DNA from: Patescibacteria group bacterium
GTDB lineage: Bacteria; Patescibacteriota; UBA1384; DATEAH01
Assembly: GCA_035288465.1 (NCBI GenBank)
Contig: DATEAH010000005.1
Span: 3,636 to 67,635, forward strand
DNA length: 64,000 bases
Direction of reading: 5' to 3'
The number at the start of each line of letters is the position of its first letter. Positions within the stretch are counted from its first letter, which is position 1. The position numbers and the translations under genes were made by a program. Shown here piece after piece: positions 4,527 to 64,000 of this stretch. A model generated the notes under the pieces. It saw only the letters and a program-made list of their open reading frames with translations. It searched no databases and was not told the origin of the DNA.

Positions 4527-5348
4527 TTATTTTCTTTTTTTAACAATTAATCTGTCAGAAGCTTGGCGTTTTCTGGTTTTATAACCTTTTGTAGGTTTGC
4601 CCCAAGGAGTTTTTGGCGATGGCATACCAACCGATGAGCGACCTTCACCACCACCATGAGGGTGAGCGTTTGGGGACATGGCCACACCTCGGACTTTGGG
4701 TCTAATATTTTGCCAGCGTTTTCGGCCAGCTTTACCAATCTTGATGAGTGAATTTTCTGGAAATGACAAGGCGCCAATTGAGGCTGAGCATTCGGCTAAG
4801 ACTTTTTTAACTTCTCGGGATGGAAACTGAATTGTAACATATTTTCCCTCTTTTGACAAGAGTTGAGCCGAAGCACCTGCCGATCTAACAGTTTGTCCGC
4901 CACGACCAGGATTTAACTCGATATTGTGTAAAACCGTACCAGTGGGTAAATTTTTTAATTTGGCGCGATTTCCAGTTTTGACCGGGGTTTTATCGGCAAA
5001 AATTACCGAATCTGTAACTTTTAAACCTTGTGGCGCTAAAATATATCTTTTTTCACCATCCGAAAAAACAATTTGAGCAATTCGAGCGGTTCGATTAGGA
5101 TCATATTCAATTGAAACTACTTTGGCTGAAAGATTTAATTTATTCTGTAAAAAATCAATTTTTCGAAAAAGTCTTTTGGCACCACCGCCTCTTTGACCAA
5201 CCGAAATTCCAGCTTTGGTGTGACCTCTCTTGCGATTATTTTTAACAATTAAAGATTTTTGCGGCTTTTTGGCGGTAATTTCTTTAAAATCTGCGCCGGA
5301 CATTTTTCGACGCGCTTGTGAAGTATTTTTATATTTCTTAATTCCCAT
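4527..5348 (-). CDS. rplB: 50S ribosomal protein L2
   Basis: 273 aa; GRNxxG..TxRxRGGGxKR-like motifs (GRGGQTVRSAGASAQ, SPNAHPHGGGEGR). Confidence 0.94.
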   Translation of the reverse strand: MGIKKYKNTSQARRKMSGADFKEITAKKPQKSLIVKNNRKRGHTKAGISVGQRGGGAKRLFRKIDFLQNKLNLSAKVVSIEYDPNRTARIAQIVFSDGEKRYILAPQGLKVTDSVIFADKTPVKTGNRAKLKNLPTGTVLHNIELNPGRGGQTVRSAGASAQLLSKEGKYVTIQFPSREVKKVLAECSASIGALSFPENSLIKIGKAGRKRWQNIRPKVRGVAMSPNAHPHGGGEGRSSVGMPSPKTPWGKPTKGYKTRKRQASDRLIVKKRK

Positions 5349-5375
5349 AAGAATCCTTTTTAAAGATGTTTAAAA

Positions 5376-5675
5376 TTATTTAATCGTTTCAAAGCCGGGA
5401 ATTTTTTGACCCTTTTTCAAAACCACGATGGCCTTTTTTTGACCTTTGATTTTTCGAACCATCATCCCATGCTTGGTAGGAGTTGCTTTCTGTTTGCCGG
5501 GATTTTTGGTAATGTTTATTTTAAGCGGATTAACTTTATATATTTTCTTGACTGCCGCATTAATTTGATTTTTGGTAGCAGTTTTAGCAACTAAAATCGT
5601 AAATTTACCGCTGTTAGCTAAAAAGGCGGTTTTTTCGGTTACTTTCGGGCCGATAATTATTTCATAACTTTCCAT
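5376..5675 (-). CDS. rplW: 50S ribosomal protein L23
   Basis: MESYEIIIGPKVTEKT...; 99 aa; position between L4 and L2. Confidence 0.9.
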   Translation of the reverse strand: MESYEIIIGPKVTEKTAFLANSGKFTILVAKTATKNQINAAVKKIYKVNPLKINITKNPGKQKATPTKHGMMVRKIKGQKKAIVVLKKGQKIPGFETIK

Positions 5676-5691
5676 TAATGCTCCAGGAATA

Positions 5692-6354
5692 TTAAAATGT
5701 TTTAACTATTTGTTCAAAACCAGCCTTGGTAGTTAAAATATATTCGAAATTTAATAAATCTAAAATATTTAAACTATCAGGCGATAAAATCTTTACATAA
5801 GCTAAATTCCGTGCAGATTTAATGATCTTTTCATCACGAACATCAGGAAGCAATAACACGGTGTCAAAAATATTCAAATTTGATAAAATTTCCTGCATTT
5901 TTTTAGTTTTAATTTCAGATAAAGCCAATTTTTCGACAATGATTAATTTTTGATGGGCAATTTTATCAGACAAAACCGCTTGGACGGCACTTTTTCGTTC
6001 TTTTTTGGGCATTTGAATTTGATAATTATTTTCAGGAGTTGGCCCAAAAGCGACGCCACCTTTTCGCCAAATTGGGTTTCGAGACGACCCAAATCGAGCA
6101 CGTCCGGTGCCTTTTTGCCGCCAAGGTTTTTTACCACCGCCCCGTCTTTCGGCTCGGTTTTTGGTGTGGGCCGTGGAAATTTGTTTCTTGGCTAATTGCC
6201 ATTGAACGGCTTTTAAAATCAAGTGTTCTTTGGGGGTAATTTTTAAAACCTCAGGAATTGAAATTTGGCCAGCTTTTTCGCCGTTTAATTTAAAAACCTG
6301 AATCTTTAAAACTTTTTTATTGGTGGGGATTTTTTGAGCAATTGTTTTTGGCAT
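5692..6354 (-). CDS. rplD: 50S ribosomal protein L4
   Basis: 220 aa; RRGGGKKPWRQKGTGRAR motif. Confidence 0.93.
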   Translation of the reverse strand: MPKTIAQKIPTNKKVLKIQVFKLNGEKAGQISIPEVLKITPKEHLILKAVQWQLAKKQISTAHTKNRAERRGGGKKPWRQKGTGRARFGSSRNPIWRKGGVAFGPTPENNYQIQMPKKERKSAVQAVLSDKIAHQKLIIVEKLALSEIKTKKMQEILSNLNIFDTVLLLPDVRDEKIIKSARNLAYVKILSPDSLNILDLLNFEYILTTKAGFEQIVKTF

Positions 6355-55226: not shown

Positions 55227-55277
55227 AAAATCCTCGGCCGCAGGTTTCGCCCTGCAACTTGGCGGAGGATTTTTTTA
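55227..55277. terminator. Strong GC-rich hairpin flanked by T-runs on both strands; terminator of the DUF433/DUF5615 operon
   Basis: aatcctcggccGCAGGtttcgcCCTGCaacttggcggaggatt followed by TTTTTTTATTTT (+); minus strand followed by TTTTATAAAT. Abuts the stop codon at 55275-77. Confidence 0.55.
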
Positions 55278-55664
55278 TTTTGGTTTTATATAATTAATTT
55301 TATCAATTGAAACACGACAAATTTTACCTTTTAATTTATTAATAGAAATAGCTTTGAGGTGACGTTTTAAGATGGTAATTAATTTAGTAGAACGCGGATC
55401 ACTACTTTGGATAAGAATAATGCCCATACTCTTGCTAATTATTTCAGATAAATTTTTATTTGCTTTGAAATCCTTATCCAGAGAGACAAAAATTCTTTGA
55501 TGTTTATTAGCTTCTTTAATTTGAGCAAAATCACTTAATTTTCTTGGCTTTCTTTTTATGGGAGTATAGATTATATTATGTCCCTTCGAACTTAAAAACT
55601 TCCCCGTTGGAATGGGGAAGTTTTCGTCGCAGTAAAAATGAAATTTAGGCATTCTTGGGTTCAA
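55275..55664 (-). CDS. DUF5615-family PIN-like toxin
   Basis: MPKFHFYCDENFP...GHNII...SDF...RIFVSLDKDF matches the DUF5615 pattern (FLxDENxP...GHxV...D...R.xxTxDKDF). Confidence 0.7.
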   Translation of the reverse strand: MNPRMPKFHFYCDENFPIPTGKFLSSKGHNIIYTPIKRKPRKLSDFAQIKEANKHQRIFVSLDKDFKANKNLSEIISKSMGIILIQSSDPRSTKLITILKRHLKAISINKLKGKICRVSIDKINYIKPK

Positions 55665-55872
55665 GCTTTATCCTTTCCCTTATTGCCCGCTTTTCAATAT
55701 AATTTAAGGCTGATATAATTTGTTCTTTAGTCAAATGAGGATAATCTTTTTGTATCTCTTTAATTCCATAACCCATAACAATATAATCTGCAATTACATC
55801 AACTGATATTCTTGTATTTGAAATTCTTTTTTTGCCACTTAAAACCTGTTTTGTAGAAATTATTCGAGTCAT
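55645..55872 (-). CDS. DUF433-family antitoxin
   Basis: LSGKKRISNTRISVDVIADYIVMGYGIKEIQKDYPHLTKEQIISALNYIEKRA; overlaps the downstream DUF5615 gene by 20 nt. Confidence 0.7.
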   Translation of the reverse strand: MTRIISTKQVLSGKKRISNTRISVDVIADYIVMGYGIKEIQKDYPHLTKEQIISALNYIEKRAIRERIKLEPKNA

Positions 55873-56020
55873 TTTTTCCTCCAGTTTTATACCATATTCA
55901 TCTTAATTATATTATTTGCAATCGTATCTGTCAAATTAACACTTTTTAATATAAATGCTAGCCTTTAACAGATAAATTTAATTTTAAAAATACATAACAC
56001 GAATTCTAAAATCCCAGCCA

Positions 56021-56880
56021 GAGGTGGGGGACGAGGTGGGGGACGGTTCTCTTTGAGCGAGGTGGGGGACGGTTCTCTTTTAAATAGACTTTTTGGCTTT
56101 TCTTACTAGCTTCCTCCATCTTTCTTTAGTTTTCGGTTTATCTTTTGCCTTTCCAAATATCTCTGATTATCACTTCCCCAGATATCTTTATTATACGATT
56201 CTTTAATTATTTGATCTACCATCAGCCGTTGATAGTTTGTTTGGCGCTCTTTTGAATTATCTCCTAATGCCCTGCAAAAGAAATCATCAGTTAAAAGTTT
56301 GTCTTTTTGACCTTGAGCATAATGGTTGTAGCTTGAAAAACGATATTTTTCAGGGCTCTTTACAAGTCTAGCCCTTACTGGATTTAATTCAATATATTTC
56401 CCGCATTGGATGAAGTACTCATCTTTTCCTATCGGTTGGCTCTTGAATCTACCTTGCCAAAAGTGTCCTGTCCAGCCATATCTTTTTTTAAAATAATGAA
56501 AGTATGCAAGGTTGAGTTTTTTCATAAAGATAGAGAAATCAGGAGCTTTTTTGGTTTGAATCAAGAAATGGACATGGTTTGGCATTAAACAATAATGATA
56601 AATATCAAACAAATGTTCTTTTTTGTACTTATTGATTAAATCTAAAAAATGGAGATAATCTTCCTTTGTTTTAAAAACAACATTTCGATTATTACCTCTT
56701 GTTATGATGTGGTAATAAGATTGAGATAAAATAAAACGAGGTGGTCTTGGCATAATTTAATGATAACATATATCAGCCAAAACGCCTAATTTCCTGTTCA
56801 TTTGAGAACCGTCCCCCAATCCAATCCGTTTTTTATGGACTACCAAGCTATCTGACCCCGCTCACGCGGGGTTTTCTTTT
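56021..56880. mobile_element. RAYT / IS200-like tyrosine-transposase element with REP-like terminal repeats
   Basis: HUH/Y1 transposase gene flanked by GAGGTGGGGGACGGTTCTCTTT (x2 plus a partial copy, 56021-56080) and an inverted copy GAGAACCGTCCCCCAA (56804-56819), plus a GC hairpin ccccgc..gcgggg (56856-56871). Confidence 0.6.
56106..56753 (-). CDS. REP-associated tyrosine transposase (RAYT) / IS200-like HUH transposase
   Basis: MPRPPRFILSQSYYHIITRGNNRNVVF (typical RAYT N-terminus); HUH motif MPNHVHFLI; candidate catalytic Tyr in RFSSYNHY. Confidence 0.8.
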   Translation of the reverse strand: MPRPPRFILSQSYYHIITRGNNRNVVFKTKEDYLHFLDLINKYKKEHLFDIYHYCLMPNHVHFLIQTKKAPDFSIFMKKLNLAYFHYFKKRYGWTGHFWQGRFKSQPIGKDEYFIQCGKYIELNPVRARLVKSPEKYRFSSYNHYAQGQKDKLLTDDFFCRALGDNSKERQTNYQRLMVDQIIKESYNKDIWGSDNQRYLERQKINRKLKKDGGS

Positions 56881-56946
56881 TATCTTATTTTACCAGATTT
56901 CCAGATATTTTATCTAAAAACTAAAGATAGTTTATTCAATTAAACT

Positions 56947-56976
56947 TTGACAAATTAAAAATTAGGTTTATAATAT
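56947..56976 (+). promoter_or_regulatory. Promoter TTGACA-N18-TAATAT
   Basis: 56947-52 TTGACA; 56971-76 TAATAT; GAGGAG RBS before ATG 57009. Confidence 0.45.
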
Positions 56977-57008
56977 AAATAACCCCGAAACGCGAGGAGT
57001 GGTGTAAG

Positions 57009-57497
57009 ATGTCGGCAAAGAGAGTTGTCGGTTTTGTGACTATTATGCTGCTTTCTCTGATTTTGACCCAAGTCGCCATTGCTGGCCCCAAGGGTCGGCG
57101 TAACACTGCCGCTATTCTTGGCGGTCTCACCGTTTATCACGCCCTCAAAGGGCACGACAATGAAGCATTAACTTTTGGACTGGCTACTATTGTTGCCAAC
57201 GAACGATATCGAGATTCGCGAGAGCAAGATTACTCATATGGCAGGCACAGACCGCGTCCCCATCCCTATTCTTATGGTGGTGGCTATGATAGTTACTACC
57301 GTCAGCCTTCATACTATTACCCTTCATCTTATGATTACACGCCTCGTTACTATGCGCCTTGTTATGAACCTCGCTATCGGCGGGTTGATGAATCTTATTA
57401 CGGGCCGCGTCGGTCTTTATTGGAGCGATACGAAGAACGCCCAATCATTATTATTATTGAAGCCGCTCCTGCCAATAACAGATATTACGGCCGGTGA
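57009..57497 (+). CDS. Secreted Tyr/Arg/Pro-rich low-complexity protein
   Basis: Signal peptide VGFVTIMLLSLILTQVAIAG; YSYGRHRPRPHPYSYGGGYDSYYRQPSYYYPSSYDYTPRYY...; GC-rich codons. Confidence 0.55.
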   Translation: MSAKRVVGFVTIMLLSLILTQVAIAGPKGRRNTAAILGGLTVYHALKGHDNEALTFGLATIVANERYRDSREQDYSYGRHRPRPHPYSYGGGYDSYYRQPSYYYPSSYDYTPRYYAPCYEPRYRRVDESYYGPRRSLLERYEERPIIIIIEAAPANNRYYGR

Positions 57498-57683
57498 GAA
57501 TCTTCATCTTTATGCCAAACCAGGCACATCCTCCATAGGAATTTGCCTGGCTTTTTTTATTGAAAAAATTTATTTAATTTTAAGAATCAATGTTCACGAA
57601 TTCCAAAATCCACTTTTTGAGAAATTTATTATTTCACTTCTAAAATCTGTACACCCTCGGAATATTCAAGTTTTTCGGAAGCC

Positions 57684-57986
57684 TTAAAAATTCCATGTGT
57701 CTCTATTTAAAACCTCGTGTTTTTTACAGAGTAATTTAAGGTCAGTTTCAAGCTCGACGATTTTATTTTTTTGTATTTCAATTTCATCTTTAACTGCTAA
57801 TACAATATATTTTTGAGTTTCCGCCAGCTCATCATTTTTCTCCTCAAGCTCGACCAATATCCTTTCTTCAACTTTAAATTGATTTTCCAAATTTTCCAAC
57901 TCGTCTTTTTCTTTTTCCAAATCTTCGCGAAAACAATTAGCTTGCTTTTTTACATTTTCAAGTATTTCTTTCGATGCCAAAATCAT
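57684..57986 (-). CDS. Coiled-coil hypothetical protein (100 aa)
   Basis: Heptad-like Glu/Lys-rich sequence. Confidence 0.45.
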   Translation of the reverse strand: MILASKEILENVKKQANCFREDLEKEKDELENLENQFKVEERILVELEEKNDELAETQKYIVLAVKDEIEIQKNKIVELETDLKLLCKKHEVLNRDTWNF

Positions 57987-58267
57987 TTTTATTCTCCTTG
58001 TTCAATTAAATCTTCGACTTTGGATTTGGCTTGTTCGAGTAATTCTTTGGATTTTTGACGCGCTATAATTCTTCGATTCTAATGAACTTTAAATTTTCCT
58101 TTTCCACCGGCATCGTGTCGCCATTTTCAAGACAAATATCAAATAAATAGGTTTTAGGATTCGCCCAATTTTCCATTTCTACTAACCCGTCCCCGTACTT
58201 ACTTTTGACTTTTACACCCATCATCTCAACCCTCCTCTTTAATTAAACTTTCAACTTTTATTTTTAT

Positions 58268-58740
58268 TTATATTCCTTTTATTGTATTTTTATTGCAAAG
58301 ATTCATTAAATCACTCCTAATATATTCATCGCGCCAGTCAGTTAGTTTTATTGGCTTGAATGGCAATTCCTTTTTAAGAATTTTCATTGCATAAACTATT
58401 AAACTTTTATTACCATTTCTAATAAATATTCCTTTATTCGTATCTTCTCTTACACAAGCTTCGATTCCATTACAAATATTATTCTGTTTATTTTTAAATT
58501 CTTTAATAGTAAATTTTTTATATAATTTTTTAATTTTACAAACAATACAATTATCGGTTCCCCAATTAAAATTATTATTAAAAAATTTTGCCGTATCTTG
58601 AATATTTTGAACCCTATAATCTTTACCTGTTTTTTCTTTAATAGTTTTTTAATATTATTCCAATTACAATCGTCGTCCGAATTTAATTCATAATAAACTA
58701 TTGCATTATAGAAATCACTTAATTTCTTAATTTTATTCAA
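58268..58740 (-). pseudogene. Hypothetical gene disrupted by a -1/+1 frameshift in an A-run (or sequencing indel)
   Basis: Frame 1 is protein-like only to ...IKKLLK, then low-complexity. An alternative frame from the A-run (~58625-58641) gives a protein-like 120-aa continuation ...TGKDYRVQNIQDTAKFFNNNFNWGTDNCIVCKIKKLYKKF... Confidence 0.35.
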
Positions 58741-58810
58741 TTATTTTTTAACTCCCAAATATTTTGCCGTGAGTAAAATCTAATGAGAACTATCCACATC
58801 AAATAGTTAA

Positions 58811-59263
58811 TTATTCTGACACAATTTTATATACTTTCTCGCATGCCGAAATTAATTTTGATGAATATTCTTGATTTAAAAATGTTGCTTCATGTACAAA
58901 TAAATTTCTATACTTTACTGACATTTTAAAAAAATCCCAATCTATCCCCAATTCATTTTTAATATTCACATGTTTAATCCCGAAAACCAGATTGACTAAT
59001 CGGATTACTTTTGTATTACGATATTTTTCATATTTTTCTTCTACAGTTAATGAATTATCATCAGAATGGATAATAATACTTCGAGAAACTGCCTCAATCA
59101 AAGAACATAATAATGCCACATCTTTTATCCCAACATCAAAATATTGATAAAGTTGATTAGCTATATTAATTCGTGATTTTGATGGTACAGAATAATATTT
59201 TCTTCGTAATTCAATAACATGACGTTGCATTTCCATCAAAAGCTGTTGGTCATCATTACTCAT
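58811..59263 (-). CDS. Hypothetical protein with HEPN-like Rx4H motif (RNLFVHE)
   Basis: 150 aa, helical; R-x4-H near the C-terminal third. Weak assignment. Confidence 0.4.
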   Translation of the reverse strand: MSNDDQQLLMEMQRHVIELRRKYYSVPSKSRINIANQLYQYFDVGIKDVALLCSLIEAVSRSIIIHSDDNSLTVEEKYEKYRNTKVIRLVNLVFGIKHVNIKNELGIDWDFFKMSVKYRNLFVHEATFLNQEYSSKLISACEKVYKIVSE

Positions 59264-59290
59264 TTTTGATTTCCTTATTAAATTTTCTCA

Positions 59291-59761
59291 CTAATTTTTG
59301 TTTAATTTTTCCATTACATCAACAGCATGGCCAATTGTAATTTTTTTATCCCGGATATTTATATCAACGATATATTCTCCAATGGGATCTCCTGCAGTAC
59401 TCTTCATTAAACAAACAAGATAGGCAAAACTATTCTTATCCAATTTTGATATAAGCCAACAAGATTCAAAATAATTGCAATCTATTTTTTTAGATAGCGA
59501 AGGAATTAATATTTGACCATTTTTATCAGAAAAAATTATTAACCCATATCCCTCGGCATAATGTTTTCCCTTTTTGGTTTTTTTATTTATTGCATCAATT
59601 ATTGCCATTTCAAGATCACCTTGAATAAATCTAGGTATAAAAACTTGTTCAAATGCAATACCAACCGGGATATTATTTTTATCGAATCCAATAATATTTC
59701 CATCTCGACCGTCGGGATCTGATGAAGGTACAACTAACACCGGAGATATAATGACCCACAC
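59291..59761 (-). CDS. Hypothetical protein; N-terminus may be supplied by the overlapping ORF 59679..59939 (frameshift near 59755-59775)
   Basis: Both ORFs look protein-like only in their non-overlapping parts. Confidence 0.35.
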   Translation of the reverse strand: MWVIISPVLVVPSSDPDGRDGNIIGFDKNNIPVGIAFEQVFIPRFIQGDLEMAIIDAINKKTKKGKHYAEGYGLIIFSDKNGQILIPSLSKKIDCNYFESCWLISKLDKNSFAYLVCLMKSTAGDPIGEYIVDINIRDKKITIGHAVDVMEKLNKN

Positions 59762-59961
59762 AGCACACTATAATAAGTCCAAAAAGTTCACGAAATAATA
59801 AATCCATTTTCTCTATTTTTTTTGAAGAATAGAGTATATCCGGATTTTTTAATAATTCCGGAATAATTATCTTTTCCAGTATTACTTCTACTGACTTCGC
59901 TGCTATTATTTTTTTATTTATGCCAAATTTTTTTATCATAACTATTCCTTAAATTTTTTAA

Positions 59962-60198
59962 TTAAATTTTGCCGATTTTTCTCCTTGCCTTGTGAATCCT
60001 CATGTGTTTTATCTTTGTCACAACACGTGTTCCCTTAGAAGTAGTTTTTCCTCCCTCAACGATAGGTTTGACGTGGTGCAAAACTTTACCTTTGGGTAAT
60101 TTGCCTTTATTATAACCTTTTTGTTTAAGAACTTTTTTAATTTTTAATGGATTTCTTTCTTTTTTAATTTGTTTTTTAGATAGTTTTCTTTTCTTCAT
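59962..60198 (-). CDS. Small basic HNH-endonuclease-like protein
   Basis: LHHVKPIVEGGKTT...HMRIHKARR fits the HNH pattern (HH..P...GG...H..H). Start taken at the ATG preceded by an AAGGAG RBS; the ORF track begins 10 codons upstream at GTG. Confidence 0.5.
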   Translation of the reverse strand: MKKRKLSKKQIKKERNPLKIKKVLKQKGYNKGKLPKGKVLHHVKPIVEGGKTTSKGTRVVTKIKHMRIHKARRKIGKI

Positions 60199-60292
60199 TC
60201 CATACTCCTTTTTATATAAGTTATCCACAGATTGACTTTCGATTTATTTTCGATTATATTTTAATTATAATGCGTAAAAAAGGGGGTGTCAA

Positions 60293-61855
60293 ATGATCAC
60301 TAAACGCCAAAAACAAGTTCTCGAATTTATTAAAAAATTCATTAGAACGCATGACTACGCTCCCTCTTTAGAAGAAATTAAAAAGCACCTCAATCTTTCT
60401 TCTGTTTCTACTGCCCATCATCATATTTCAAAACTATACAATAAAGGATTTATTAATAGATTAAAAAATAATCCACGAGCGATCGAACTTGTTGAGACTA
60501 AAAAACTAAATTTAATTAAAATCCCTATTGTGGGAACAATAGCTGCGGGTCAACCGATTGAAGCGATAGAAGTTCCTGGTCAGTCAGTGACTCTATCACG
60601 AGATGAAATTGGAAAATTCGGAAATTTTTATGCTCTGAAAGTTGACGGCAATAGTATGATCGACGAAGGTATATTTGATGGTGACTTTGTAATAATTCGC
60701 AGACAAGAAACTGCTGATAATGGACAGACGGTCGTGGCGATTATTGATGATAACGAAGCTACCCTTAAAAAAATTTATAAAGAAAATAAAAGAATTAAAT
60801 TACAGCCAGCGAATCAGGTTATGCTACCTATCTTTCGAAAAGAGGTAAAAATTCGTGGTGTAGTGGTTAAAATCATCAGAAACTTAGAAAATAGCGTTCA
60901 GGATAATACACTGGCTTATAAAAAGAAAATATTATTAAATCGCATTAGAAGTTCTAATCCTAATAGTAGCAATAAATATAAAAGAGTTGCTCTTTCAACA
61001 ATAAGATATGCTGGTGGGAAAAGCTTGGCAGTTGGACATGTGATTGAATTGTTGCCAGACAATATCGAAAAGGTTATTTCTCCGTTTTTTGGTGGTGGTT
61101 CAATTGAAATAGCTATGAGCAAAGAGCTAGATTTGGAAGTAGTAGGTTATGATATATTTGATATCCTTTGCAATTATTGGAAATTTCAGATAGAAAAACC
61201 GAAACTTCTTTATGAAAAATTAAAAGTACTAGAACCAAATAAAAAAACTTTTGAGAAAATTAGATTAATCTTGAATAAAGTATGGAAAAAAAGAATAAAG
61301 TTAGACCCTATAACATTAGCGGTTTATTATGTTTATAACTTTAACTTATCATATGGCCCAGGATTTATGGGTTGGGCTTCTGATATTTATTTAAATGAGA
61401 AAAAATATAATAGAGTAATTAAAAAAATTAGAGACTTTGATCCTAAAAATTTACGGGTTAAATGTGAAGATTTCCAAAAAGTAATCAAGAATCACCCAAA
61501 TGATTTTCTTTATTGTGATCCTCCATATTATATTGGAAAGGATTCAAAAATGTTTAAAGGAATATATCCGATGAGGAATATTCCTGTCCATCATAATGGA
61601 TTCCCACATGAGGCATTAAGAGATTTGCTGAAGAAACACAAGGGTGGCTTTATTTTATCCTATAACAATTGTTCGACAATAAGGGAATACTACAAAGAGT
61701 TCCAACAAGTATTTCCAAGTTGGCAGTACACAATGGGACAAGGAGAAACAAGAATAGGCCAAAATCGCATTAATAATGGGAGTAAAAATCATATAAAGTC
61801 ATCTCATGAAATAATTATTTACAATTTGCCAAAGAATAAATTTTATAATTCTTGA
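60293..61855 (+). CDS. Fusion: complete LexA repressor (wHTH + S24 autopeptidase) + Dam-family N6-adenine DNA methyltransferase
   Basis: LexA hallmarks: ITKRQKQVLEFI, cleavage-site IVGTIAAGQP (Ala-Gly), nucleophile VDGNSM, GDFVIIRR...GQTVVAIIDDNEATLKKIYK (catalytic Lys), VVVKIIRN. ~35-aa linker. Dam hallmarks: RYAGGKS (AdoMet motif I), CDPPYY (motif IV). One 520-aa ORF, no in-frame stop. Confidence 0.8.
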   Translation: MITKRQKQVLEFIKKFIRTHDYAPSLEEIKKHLNLSSVSTAHHHISKLYNKGFINRLKNNPRAIELVETKKLNLIKIPIVGTIAAGQPIEAIEVPGQSVTLSRDEIGKFGNFYALKVDGNSMIDEGIFDGDFVIIRRQETADNGQTVVAIIDDNEATLKKIYKENKRIKLQPANQVMLPIFRKEVKIRGVVVKIIRNLENSVQDNTLAYKKKILLNRIRSSNPNSSNKYKRVALSTIRYAGGKSLAVGHVIELLPDNIEKVISPFFGGGSIEIAMSKELDLEVVGYDIFDILCNYWKFQIEKPKLLYEKLKVLEPNKKTFEKIRLILNKVWKKRIKLDPITLAVYYVYNFNLSYGPGFMGWASDIYLNEKKYNRVIKKIRDFDPKNLRVKCEDFQKVIKNHPNDFLYCDPPYYIGKDSKMFKGIYPMRNIPVHHNGFPHEALRDLLKKHKGGFILSYNNCSTIREYYKEFQQVFPSWQYTMGQGETRIGQNRINNGSKNHIKSSHEIIIYNLPKNKFYNS

Positions 61856-62613
61856 AATTTAGAAATCGCTCTACCGTGGACTAAAACATTATTATATTTA
61901 ATTTTTATTTTATTAATTTTATTTTTTAATAAATTTAGTGTTTTTTCTCGACTCATCCAAAATTTGATTTCTCTATAATGCACATCACTATCATTTCTAA
62001 GTTCAATTTCGCCAATAGTTACACCCTTATTAATCAATATAAAAATAACTTTTTGAGCATCCATCTGCCCAATTCTTTTTGCTTTTGAATTTGAAATCGT
62101 GGTAGAATTATCAAGGGCTTCGATAGCTTCATACCCATCAAAAACATGAAATTGATGATTTTCTTTAATGGTTAAATAATCAACTTCTCCATTATTCAAA
62201 AATGCTTTTTTGAAAAAAATAATTTTGTTTTGCCCTTTATTTAAATATTTACTTAAATTTTTCATTGCAATAGTCAGTAATTCCTTAAACTTTATTTTAT
62301 TTAGTAAATATTTATCTCTAGATGAGGGGAAACAATTAAGACAATCACGAAGAAAATTTGATCCTTGGAAATCAATATCAGTCATTAACCTATTATAACC
62401 ATATAAGAATATTTGCCATTTTTTCTCTCCACTTTTCACGGAATGTATATCACCACGTTTGTCTATTACATCTTTTTTCTTGCCACTACCATGCGTTTTA
62501 CCCCCGATTATACACGCAAATTCTTTTTCGGCATCATGACCACGCTGTCTTACCATCCTAGCATTTTCAGAAGTCATTGCACGACGTTTTATTATTGTAT
62601 TCTTTTGATCCAT
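61843..62613 (-). CDS. Hypothetical protein (256 aa); candidate restriction endonuclease partner of the methyltransferase
   Basis: Convergent with, and overlapping by 13 nt, the 3' end of the LexA-MTase gene. No confident motif (possible D...EIELR). Confidence 0.5.
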   Translation of the reverse strand: MDQKNTIIKRRAMTSENARMVRQRGHDAEKEFACIIGGKTHGSGKKKDVIDKRGDIHSVKSGEKKWQIFLYGYNRLMTDIDFQGSNFLRDCLNCFPSSRDKYLLNKIKFKELLTIAMKNLSKYLNKGQNKIIFFKKAFLNNGEVDYLTIKENHQFHVFDGYEAIEALDNSTTISNSKAKRIGQMDAQKVIFILINKGVTIGEIELRNDSDVHYREIKFWMSREKTLNLLKNKINKIKIKYNNVLVHGRAISKFQEL

Positions 62614-62628
62614 TTTATATTCCTTTTC

Positions 62629-62650
62629 TGCTTCAAGTTTACTCTTTAAA
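62629..62650. promoter_or_regulatory. 18-nt element TGCTTCAAGTTTACTCTT (+AAA), copy 1 (copy 2 at 63898-63918)
   Basis: Identical sequence 15-37 nt upstream of the 256-aa gene start and ~40-60 nt upstream of the 87-aa/308-aa operon start. Confidence 0.5.
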
Positions 62651-62667
62651 ATGATTTTTGTACTTTT

Positions 62668-63594
62668 TTATCCTTTTATTAGCTTAAAACTGATTTTATA
62701 TGTGTAAAAGTCAATATTTTGGGTTACAGACAAGGCACGATGCAGACGAATATCATCTTCATGAGCAATAATTAATCCGCAAACTTTTTGACCTTTTTCG
62801 GCAAGTTCTTCTTTAATATAACCCATATAACTCTGCACTTGACCGATAACAACATCACTCGCTCTTCCTCTTTTAAGTTCTATGACTAATAATTCCTTTT
62901 TGTCCTTGCTGATTGCGAGAATATCAAGCGGCCCGGTGTCTGTTTGATATTGCTTACCAATAATTTCACCCTTTTCTTTAAAAATATTATATTTTTTCCC
63001 TAGAATTGTATGTTCCCAGTTTTGGACCAAAAAATCTTCTAAATACTGCTCGAGCGCAAAAACCGAAGGATCCTCAATGGTTTCATCGGTCGCAATAATA
63101 TCTGCGGGTTTTTTGCCAGAAATGAGTTTTTCAATCTCCTCTGCATATCCTGAGATATTGATAGCCGTTCCGGCTGCGCCTGTTGAATTTTGAAGAGCTT
63201 CACTCATTTGATTTCTTTCAATAACCCCCGGAAACCAACGTACTCCTCGACGATGGGGTAATTTTTCACCTTTTTGATATTCGTAGTTAGTTGTGATTTC
63301 GCCAACCATATATTCGGCTCTACCATTAGGACAAAGAACGATATCATCAACATTTATTCCTTTTGCAATAGTCCAAAGCATGCCACAAGCAAGACCAGCC
63401 GCGACTCTTGATCTCCCTGGATTTTCTTTGAGATATTTAGGAATCATCACTTTATTAAATTCGCGCCAATTTTCGGGTAGTTTATTTGATAAATCTGTTT
63501 TTTTAATCCACCCAACACCAATAAAATTACCAACATGGGCTTCTTCTGCATAAATACTATTTTGCCCTAGCATAATTCTATAATATGCTCTCAT
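62668..63594 (-). CDS. Nuclease: N-terminal PUA/EVE-like domain (tentative) + C-terminal NucS/DUF91 (Shedu-like) PD-(D/E)xK domain
   Basis: C-terminus GPLDILAISKDKKELLVIELKRGRASDVVIGQVQSYMGYIK matches the NucS-type D...ExK...Q..Y motif. N-terminus has FIGVGW...VDDIVLCP..AEYMVGEI...HRRGVRW (PUA-like pattern). Confidence 0.6.
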   Translation of the reverse strand: MRAYYRIMLGQNSIYAEEAHVGNFIGVGWIKKTDLSNKLPENWREFNKVMIPKYLKENPGRSRVAAGLACGMLWTIAKGINVDDIVLCPNGRAEYMVGEITTNYEYQKGEKLPHRRGVRWFPGVIERNQMSEALQNSTGAAGTAINISGYAEEIEKLISGKKPADIIATDETIEDPSVFALEQYLEDFLVQNWEHTILGKKYNIFKEKGEIIGKQYQTDTGPLDILAISKDKKELLVIELKRGRASDVVIGQVQSYMGYIKEELAEKGQKVCGLIIAHEDDIRLHRALSVTQNIDFYTYKISFKLIKG

Positions 63595-63596
63595 CG

Positions 63597-63860
63597 CTAT
63601 TCCTTTATTTTTGTTCTATTGATAATATTTTCGATTACCCAATATTTATAACCATAAATTTTTAGATATTTGTATTTTTTGCCATAAAATGATTTTTTAT
63701 AACCATTTTTATCGATCTCGGCAATAAAAGTATTAATTTCTTCCGATTTTTCCGGATATAAGTCTGTAACAATATATTCGTGGGGAATTTCGGGCATCGT
63801 TTTAGCAAATTGCCAATCAACTGACTTGATTAATTTTTCAATCTGCATTAAATTATTCAT
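63597..63860 (-). CDS. Small hypothetical protein (87 aa), first gene of an operon with the nuclease
   Basis: MNNLMQIEKLIKSVDWQFAKTMPEIPHEYIV...KYKYLKIYGYKYWV; its stop abuts the nuclease start. Confidence 0.45.
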   Translation of the reverse strand: MNNLMQIEKLIKSVDWQFAKTMPEIPHEYIVTDLYPEKSEEINTFIAEIDKNGYKKSFYGKKYKYLKIYGYKYWVIENIINRTKIKE

Positions 63861-64000
63861 TCAGTTTTGTTTTTTAATCTCCAAAAGAAAATCTATTTGC
63901 TTCAAGTTTACTCTTAAATTGGGTGGAAAGCAAGAAGTTGTGGGCACAATAGGAAATTAACCTAATTAGTCTAATTATTCTAAAATTGTTATGTTAAGGC

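Follow-up and report, generated by a model that had tools for sequence, protein, structure and literature searches.

Near the right-hand end of a 64,000-nucleotide stretch of DNA from a Patescibacteria group bacterium (contig DATEAH010000005.1 of assembly GCA_035288465.1; the whole stretch is hereafter called the window), a single gene encodes a 308-residue protein in which an N-terminal DUF8426 domain is joined by a linker to a NucS_C-type PD-(D/E)xK nuclease domain. Our analyses suggest that this protein is probably a stand-alone, single-polypeptide restriction nuclease of the modification-dependent (type IV-like) kind. An earlier reading of the same DNA from its letters alone (hereafter, the original prediction) had proposed a modified-DNA-dependent nuclease, and this proposal is supported by the architecture of the protein, by the predicted fold of its N-terminal domain, and by domain fusions in other proteins; the modification dependence itself we infer. 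As a kind of enzyme, a PUA-like reader coupled to a PD-(D/E)xK nuclease and acting in a modification-dependent manner is well known, and the family that combines DUF8426 with NucS_C is already catalogued, as PDC-S02. The coordinates of the gene, its domains, and the neighbouring features are compiled in Table 1.

An identical copy of the 308-amino acid (aa) protein (P0001) is encoded on at least 22 metagenomic contigs, where it is annotated with PF28530 and PF01939 and carries the database name 'endonuclease NucS domain-containing protein [Patescibacteria group bacterium]'. The matches listed include more than 7,700 homologs, and an alignment of 33 homologs with 66-75% identity to the query (alignment A1) has a mean column identity of 74%. 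The gene is thus real and strongly constrained. Both domains are present in the protein, with NucS_C (PF01939) identified in our own Pfam scan and DUF8426 (PF28530) taken from the precomputed annotation of the identical protein; the Pfam release scanned here predates PF28530. In a full-length AlphaFold model (predicted local distance difference test [pLDDT] 76.7), aa 164-180 between the two domains are disordered. The PADLOC models PDLC04824 and PDLC04799 of PDC-S02 align to the protein from end to end (aa 1-307 against model positions 1-307 of 308; E ~1e-148). The PDCs, a set of 145 untested 'phage defence candidates', were chosen for their embedding in type I restriction-modification (R-M), BREX, or DISARM operons (10.1101/2024.01.29.577857). 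PDC-S02 itself (Payne et al., 2024, 'guilt by embedding') is the same single gene, often in type I R-M operons, and since no sequence difference separates the two, the window protein is a member of this family, which remains a candidate.

The nuclease domain was identified by several approaches. Pfam NucS_C matched aa 204-278 (E = 3.7e-7; 30.6 bits against a gathering cut-off of 24 bits), with a weaker match to YhcG_C (E = 1.9e-5), and phmmer aligned aa 200-278 with both the NucS of P. abyssi (2vld) and the EndoMS of T. kodakarensis (5gke). In the alignment with NucS, D224 is opposite the D of 'GIVDVMG', and E239 and K241 are opposite 'ELK'. These three residues, along with Q252 and Y256 of a second NucS-type motif, are invariant in 33/33 homologs (A1), and their codons were confirmed by translation. 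The catalytic residues are therefore retained on alignment. The signature had originally been described as that of NucS and Shedu alike. Only the NucS half of this description was verified, because Shedu (DUF4263) gave no match at E ≤ 1 in either Pfam or PADLOC.

The resemblance to NucS raises the alternative that the protein is a true NucS/EndoMS-type endonuclease, serving the host chromosome in the repair of mismatches or lesions. In addition to the NucS_C match and the name given to the protein by NCBI, EndoMS (5gke) and NucS (2vld) rank first in a Foldseek search with the full-length model, and the catalytic domain with its D...ExK...Q...Y motif is common to NucS/EndoMS and the window protein. 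However, the two NCBIfam NucS equivalogs scored far below their cut-offs (34.4 bits against 216, and 21.9 bits against 252). The N-terminal half-barrel of NucS was likewise not found, with no NucS_N match in Pfam at E ≤ 1 and neither 2vld nor 5gke among the matches listed for a Foldseek search with the N-terminal domain model. Because of the low equivalog scores and the missing N-terminal domain, we rejected NucS orthology. NucS/EndoMS thus differs from the window protein in its N-terminal domain, and the window family is also mobile and defence-associated. Its patchy distribution, of the type produced by horizontal gene transfer, its presence on plasmids, and its embedding in R-M operons (see below) are further arguments against a repair function, which we regard as highly improbable.

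The N-terminal domain is the predicted reader. Among 1.84 billion cluster representatives, 797 proteins matched aa 1-170 at E ≤ 0.001, and 48 diverse DUF8426 domain sequences (31-53% identity) were aligned with the query to give alignment A2 (49 sequences). The AlphaFold model built from A2 (pLDDT 97; predicted template modelling [TM] score 0.90) comprises, in its first half, β1 (aa 4-7), α1 (16-22), β2 (24-27), and two long helices (43-57 and 63-79) and, in its second half, β3 (85-89), β4 (94-100), β5 (114-126), a helix (132-138), β6 (144-146), and a final helix (148-158). The four motifs quoted in the original prediction are all in the ORF (open reading frame), where IGVGW (aa 25-29), DDIVLCP (83-89), MVGEI (96-100), and GVRW (117-120) map to β2, β3, β4, and β5 of the model, respectively. 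We take the order of the elements to be that of YTH domains, going by the topology of YTHDC1, save that the helix between β2 and β3 is doubled in DUF8426, in which aa 43-79 form an additional pair of long helices.

Foldseek searches of the PDB with the DUF8426 model returned YTH domains as all three of the best matches (probability 0.96-1.0, TM-score 0.43-0.55), including YTHDF1 (7yz8; probability 1.00, E = 4e-4, TM-scores 0.48/0.43) and YTHDC2 (9h35; probability 0.96, TM-scores 0.46/0.55). Weaker, partial matches were to the PUA domains of RsmE-type methyltransferases. In the BFVD database, one clear homolog of the DUF8426 fold was detected in a metagenomic 'Myoviridae sp.' (query TM-score 0.74), and ASCH/DUF3850 phage proteins matched weakly. 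The PUA-like superfamily includes YTH, EVE, and ASCH domains alike, and within it the nearest structural relative of EVE is YTH (PMC7641849). The original prediction of a PUA/EVE-like fold is supported at the level of structure, where the best matches of a model with pLDDT 97 are PUA-like (YTH) domains, and not at the level of sequence profiles, which gave no link to EVE, YTH, or ASCH.

The positions that are most conserved among the 49 domains of A2 are an aromatic residue at position 29 (47/49), Y104 (49/49), an aromatic residue at position 106 (48/49; Y106 in the query), H114 (47/49), R116 (49/49), and W120 (49/49). These residues sit just after β2, in the loop between β4 and β5, and on β5. 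Judged by their position in the model, the conserved aromatics may occupy sites analogous to the tryptophans that form the methyl-adenine cage of YTH domains.

A second line of evidence, which is independent of the fold call, is provided by the proteins to which DUF8426 is fused. Among the best 150 representatives that carry DUF8426, the fusion partners were NucS_C (23 representatives), YhcG_C (9), PDDEXK_4 (5), the McrB-type AAA_5 GTPase (5), GmrSD_N/C (2), HSDR_N (2-3), Mrr_cat or Mrr_cat_2 (2), HEPN_Swt1 (2), and MUG113 (1). Fusions to CBS, AAA_15/AAA_21, DUF900, and alpha/beta hydrolase domains were also identified. In McrB-like, GmrSD-like, and Mrr-like proteins, DUF8426 takes the position of the reader module. 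It is also found in arrays of several readers: one McrB-type protein (P0182) combines it with DUF4357 and MrcB_N, and one GmrSD protein (P0260) carries it beside RAMA, DUF4357, and an MGMT-like DNA-binding domain. Such swapping of a cassette among McrB, GmrSD, Mrr, and nucleases is, by analogy, the behaviour of a type IV restriction reader module. It has been recorded for EVE and YTH-like domains (PMC7641849, PMC6765204, PMC7897488, PMC11090510), and fusions of YTH-like domains to McrB or to PD-(D/E)xK nucleases are among the examples described (PMC7641849).

Several observations weigh against the view that DUF8426 reads modified bases in DNA on behalf of a defence nuclease. The match to the YTH fold is borderline (TM-score 0.43-0.55, root-mean-square deviation 6-10 Å) and comes from a single method, and the correspondence with the YTH cage is one of position and not of pocket geometry. 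A Pfam scan of the 49 DUF8426 sequences at E ≤ 10 returned no YTH, EVE, or ASCH match and one weak match to PUA_4, hhalign comparisons with YTHDF2 and YTHDC1 gave probabilities below 1%, and the Foldseek matches listed included neither archaeal YTH-McrB nor EVE structures. The fusions to HEPN_Swt1, CBS, and alpha/beta hydrolase domains do not indicate DNA. In addition, PDC-S02 is a candidate defence family with a predicted function, and in the one published test of a PDC-S02 representative, E. coli B was not protected from T4, T5, or T7 (10.1101/2024.09.26.614923); that representative was of an unspecified subfamily and may differ in architecture from the window protein, given that the hidden Markov models of PDC-S02 are heterogeneous, with some covering only the N-terminal domain and others only the nuclease domain. 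The comparison of the A2 profile with PDB sequences, likewise, yielded no meaningful relative. Setting the fold match against these negative sequence-profile tests, we consider a PUA-like/YTH-like fold for DUF8426 to be supported with moderate strength. A literature search for 'DUF8426' found no paper, and the domain is without a characterised member.

The fold and the fusions also bear on the nature of the ligand. The best structural matches are eukaryotic readers of N6-methyladenine (m6A) in RNA, two representatives carry DUF8426 together with a HEPN_Swt1 RNase domain, and the YTH-like domains in CoCoNuT systems have been proposed to act on RNA in this way (PMC11090510). Accordingly, DUF8426 could be imagined to read m6A or another modification in RNA (tRNA, rRNA, tmRNA, or phage transcripts), with the protein acting on RNA or on RNA-DNA hybrids. 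However, characterised relatives of the NucS-type effector cut DNA (PMC12191111; 10.64898/2026.09.05.749240), most fusion partners of DUF8426 are DNA restriction modules, and an archaeal YTH-McrB protein reads m6A in DNA (PMC7641849). An RNA target for the window protein thus appears quite improbable, although the fusions to the HEPN_Swt1 RNase, the DUF900 hydrolase, and CBS domains suggest that not all members of DUF8426 need target DNA.

The distribution of the nuclease family was evaluated in ~185,000 species-representative genomes (GTDB; one genome per species), of which 425 encode a homolog, ranging from bacteria of the candidate phyla radiation to Thaumarchaeota. The best 80 of these 425 loci encode proteins that are 59-75% identical to the query and derive from Patescibacteria, Bacteroidota, Gamma-, Delta-, and Alphaproteobacteria, Chloroflexi, Planctomycetes, and Omnitrophota among Bacteria and from Nitrosopumilus, Nanoarchaeota, and Methanosarcinales among Archaea. 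Identities of ~60-75% across bacterial and archaeal phyla indicate extensive horizontal transfer. Homologs were also detected on conjugative and mobilizable plasmids, including seven Acinetobacter megaplasmid records with a copy that is 52-54% identical to the query. The only plasmid whose context was examined is A. pittii pAP2044-1 (NZ_CP087717.1, 270229..271164; 54% identical, WP_058952590), in which the RefSeq gene order is hsdS-hsdM-hsdS-[NucS domain protein]-[Abi family protein]-hsdR. These cultured Acinetobacter carriers provide a ready experimental system for the family. No phage-encoded copy was matched in a tblastn search of 50,697 phage records. As a separate observation, the conjugative NDM plasmid pHFK418-NDM of Proteus mirabilis (4944..5936) encodes a 330-aa 'restriction endonuclease' with a distant DUF8426-like region (28% identity over aa 25-194), the gene of which follows a cluster of methyltransferase, DEAD/DEAH helicase, and GIY-YIG nuclease genes.

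To characterise the genomic context, ORFs were called in the best 80 loci and the immediate neighbours of the nuclease gene were scanned against Pfam and then clustered. A subunit of a type I or IIG R-M system directly adjoins the nuclease gene in 31 of the 80 loci. HsdR is encoded immediately downstream in 14 of 73 cases and an N6_Mtase domain in 7 of 73 (6 of them with HsdM_N), HsdS is encoded immediately upstream in 11 of 69, and the nuclease gene lies strictly between hsdS and hsdR in seven of the 80 loci. In single loci, the gene is beside an MmeI-like type IIG enzyme, in front of hsdM, next to RadC, or near an SNF2/PLD and Eco57I-type system. The R-M embedding of PDC-S02 was hence reproduced independently by our neighbourhood analysis; the window copy is instead beside a type II-like R-M pair. 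In ~60% of the 80 loci, the window included, no type I R-M gene is adjacent. Clustering of the neighbours identified no partner gene that is conserved across the nuclease loci; the nuclease is a single-gene module.

The association with type I R-M systems invites a different explanation. PrrC, encoded within a type I R-M operon, offers a precedent for a back-up or abortive-infection nuclease that is linked to R-M and does not read base modifications. In such a scheme, DUF8426 would respond to some other cue of infection (an anti-restriction protein, for instance, or a nucleotide signal, or a DNA structure or end) by releasing a non-specific NucS-type nuclease. This is consistent with the strong physical association of the gene with type I R-M operons, with the Abi-family gene that adjoins it in the Acinetobacter plasmid, with the fusions of DUF8426 to CBS, AAA_15/AAA_21, and hydrolase domains, and with the negative result for PDC-S02 against modified T4. 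However, because ~60% of the loci have no adjacent type I R-M gene, the nuclease must be able to work alone. Moreover, DUF8426 takes the place of the reader in fusions of the McrB, GmrSD, and Mrr types, as sensors of DNA modification typically do, and the best fold matches are readers of modified bases. We therefore consider a PrrC-like role unlikely.

Known systems offer precedents for a modification-dependent restriction nuclease of this design. One is Madara (PDC-S11) of E. coli ECOR34, a NucS-like and EVE-like protein that restricts T4 with glucosylated hydroxymethylcytosine (ghmC) but not T4(C) and that is inactive when its catalytic Asp is mutated (10.64898/2026.09.05.749240). Like the window protein, Madara consists of a NucS-type effector, a linker, and a sensor resembling those of the PUA superfamily, and it complements the classical defence system beside which its single gene lies. 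The PDC-S11 models match the nuclease domain of the window protein (E = 2.5e-8). The two differ in that the nuclease of Madara is N-terminal and its sensor belongs to another family, with DUF8426 giving no match to the PDC-S11 models, and in that restriction by Madara is experimentally supported, whereas the window family is known from sequence and models.

A NucS-like nuclease is also the effector of END-Mag, a modified-base-sensing anti-phage enzyme that targets phages with modified G through an inactive EndoIII sensor, a domain likewise found on McrB GTPases (PMC12191111). That sensor has the helix-hairpin-helix glycosylase fold and is not DUF8426. The type IV system TgvAB lies inside a type I R-M operon, where it complements the type I system against hypermodified phages (PMC11411939). 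More broadly, enzymes of the MspJI/SRA, EVE-HNH (VcaM4I and TspA15I), and YTH-McrB types follow the same plan of reader plus nuclease, with no need of a methyltransferase, and such PUA-superfamily enzymes are likewise found in defence islands. DUF8426 shares with them a PUA-like/YTH-like fold in Foldseek comparisons and has no detectable sequence relationship to EVE, YTH, ASCH, or SRA. In keeping with a type IV enzyme, the window protein has an intact active site and a separate predicted specificity domain, and no cognate methyltransferase was found for it.

A modification-dependent restriction nuclease of this architecture may operate as follows. DUF8426, as a YTH/PUA-like α/β barrel, would bind nucleic acid and take a flipped-out modified base into a pocket lined by aromatic residue 29, Y104, Y106, H114, R116, and W120. 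The flexible linker of ~20 residues would couple this event to the NucS-type PD-(D/E)xK domain (D224, E239, and K241) which, judging by its intact active site and its relatives, would cut the bound DNA nearby, probably as a dimer. Dimerisation is a property of NucS and of other PD-(D/E)xK enzymes. The enzyme would act without a cognate methyltransferase and is spread by horizontal transfer, and its predicted anti-phage role would be to complement an adjoining R-M system by covering phages with modified DNA that escapes classical systems.

In the window, the gene neighbouring the nuclease on which attention had been focused encodes a Dam-like methyltransferase. This 520-aa protein fuses a complete LexA (LexA_DNA_bind and an S24 self-cleaving peptidase; TIGR lexA, E = 5e-56) to a D12-class, Dam-like methyltransferase, and its gene is convergent with that of a 256-aa ORF. 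The 256-aa protein has ~700 homologs, all of which are named 'hypothetical', and no Pfam domain was found in it. Members of this family adjoin a D12 methyltransferase in 4 of 4 loci, namely the window, Caldimicrobium thiodismutans, and two further loci (L092 and L093), and the DUF8426 nuclease is not in the latter three, which are unrelated loci. In L092, an unrelated metagenomic contig, the same LexA-S24-D12 fusion (73% identical) is again convergent with the 256-aa protein (52% identical). The recurrence of the pair in loci without the DUF8426 nuclease indicates that the methyltransferase and the 256-aa ORF are a separate mobile R-M module of their own, probably of type II. The 256-aa ORF is a candidate for an undescribed family of type II restriction endonucleases; inspection by eye picked out a possible D48...E63-K-K65 motif in it. 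It is unusual for an R-M methyltransferase to bear an SOS-type repressor, and the fusion may make R-M expression responsive to DNA damage.

These results bear on whether the nuclease is the restriction partner of the Dam-like methyltransferase in a type II pair that cuts unmethylated DNA. A D12-class methyltransferase ~800 bp away, and the frequency of adenine methyltransferases near the nuclease gene in other genomes, would be in keeping with such a pairing. However, the convergent partner of the methyltransferase gene is the 256-aa ORF, this pair recurs without the nuclease in L092, and the nuclease homologs adjoin varied R-M systems with no conserved methyltransferase partner, some having none nearby. 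The pairing is therefore largely refuted by genomic context and we give it very little credence. The functional link between nuclease and methyltransferase that the original prediction had implied is thus unsupported, and their adjacency is an instance of defence-island clustering. Because the nuclease gene often coexists with adenine methyltransferases, m6A in general is also unlikely to be the target. The 87-aa ORF on the other side of the nuclease gene matched none of the families in Pfam, NCBIfam, PADLOC, or PHROGs, and neither this ORF nor the 256-aa ORF had a tblastn match in 86 other nuclease loci (L005-L090); both were rejected as partners of the nuclease. A scan for promoters and terminators between 61.7 and 64 kb gave counts near the shuffled expectation and no informative sites.

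The region from 55275 to 64000 resembles an accessory island, with a G+C content of 0.26-0.31 between 57.5 and 62.5 kb compared to 0.38-0.44 further left, and includes a transposase gene and a toxin-antitoxin-like gene pair. In this window, the nuclease is ordinary defence-island cargo that is functionally untied to the neighbouring methyltransferase.

Table 1. Features of the nuclease gene and its surroundings (window coordinates).
Feature	Position	Strand	Basis or remark
DUF8426 + NucS_C gene (PADLOC candidate PDC-S02)	62668..63594	-	Complete ATG-started ORF, 308 aa + stop
N-terminal domain, aa 1-160 (DUF8426; YTH/PUA-like fold, predicted reader)	63115..63594	-	AlphaFold, Foldseek, conservation, fusions
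Flexible linker, aa 161-180	63055..63114	-	pLDDT <50 for aa 164-180, full-length model
PD-(D/E)xK nuclease domain, NucS_C type, aa 181-308	62671..63054	-	Pfam, Foldseek, phmmer
Catalytic core D224 ... E239-L-K241, peptide DILAISKDKKELLVIELK	62872..62925	-	Translation, invariant A1 columns
Q252 ... Y256 (GQVQSY), second conserved NucS-type motif	62827..62841	-	Invariant; aligned to 'sQmkrY' of NucS
87-aa ORF	63597..63860	-	2-nt gap before the nuclease start codon
256-aa ORF	61843..62613	-	54 nt past the nuclease gene; converges on the 520-aa gene with a 13-nt overlap
520-aa LexA-D12 methyltransferase fusion	60293..61855	+	Pfam and TIGR lexA matches
IS200-type Y1 transposase	56106..56753		Gene calls of identical contig L001
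DUF433/DUF5615 toxin-antitoxin-like pair	55275..55872		Gene calls of identical contig L001

Beyond the readings weighed above, the probability that remains falls to none of them. Within the question of what DUF8426 senses, there is a slim chance that it is an unrecognised reader of a mark other than 5-methylcytosine, hydroxymethylcytosine, ghmC, or m6A, or a sensor of type I R-M inactivation. Purine or thymidine hypermodification, backbone modification, and modified RNA are candidates for such a mark. If either were true, PDC-S02 would represent a sensor-nuclease with a new mechanism rather than another type IV enzyme of the EVE/YTH type. Should the favoured reading of a modification-dependent restriction nuclease be true, PDC-S02 would be among the most widely transferred single-gene restriction nucleases. 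The unusual conservation of the family across domains of life, together with the lack of a sequence link to EVE and YTH, makes it a reasonable experimental target. The ligand of DUF8426, once found, would add a new reader of modified nucleic acids, with potential as an epigenetic tool enzyme, and would also explain the insertion of such nucleases in type I R-M operons.

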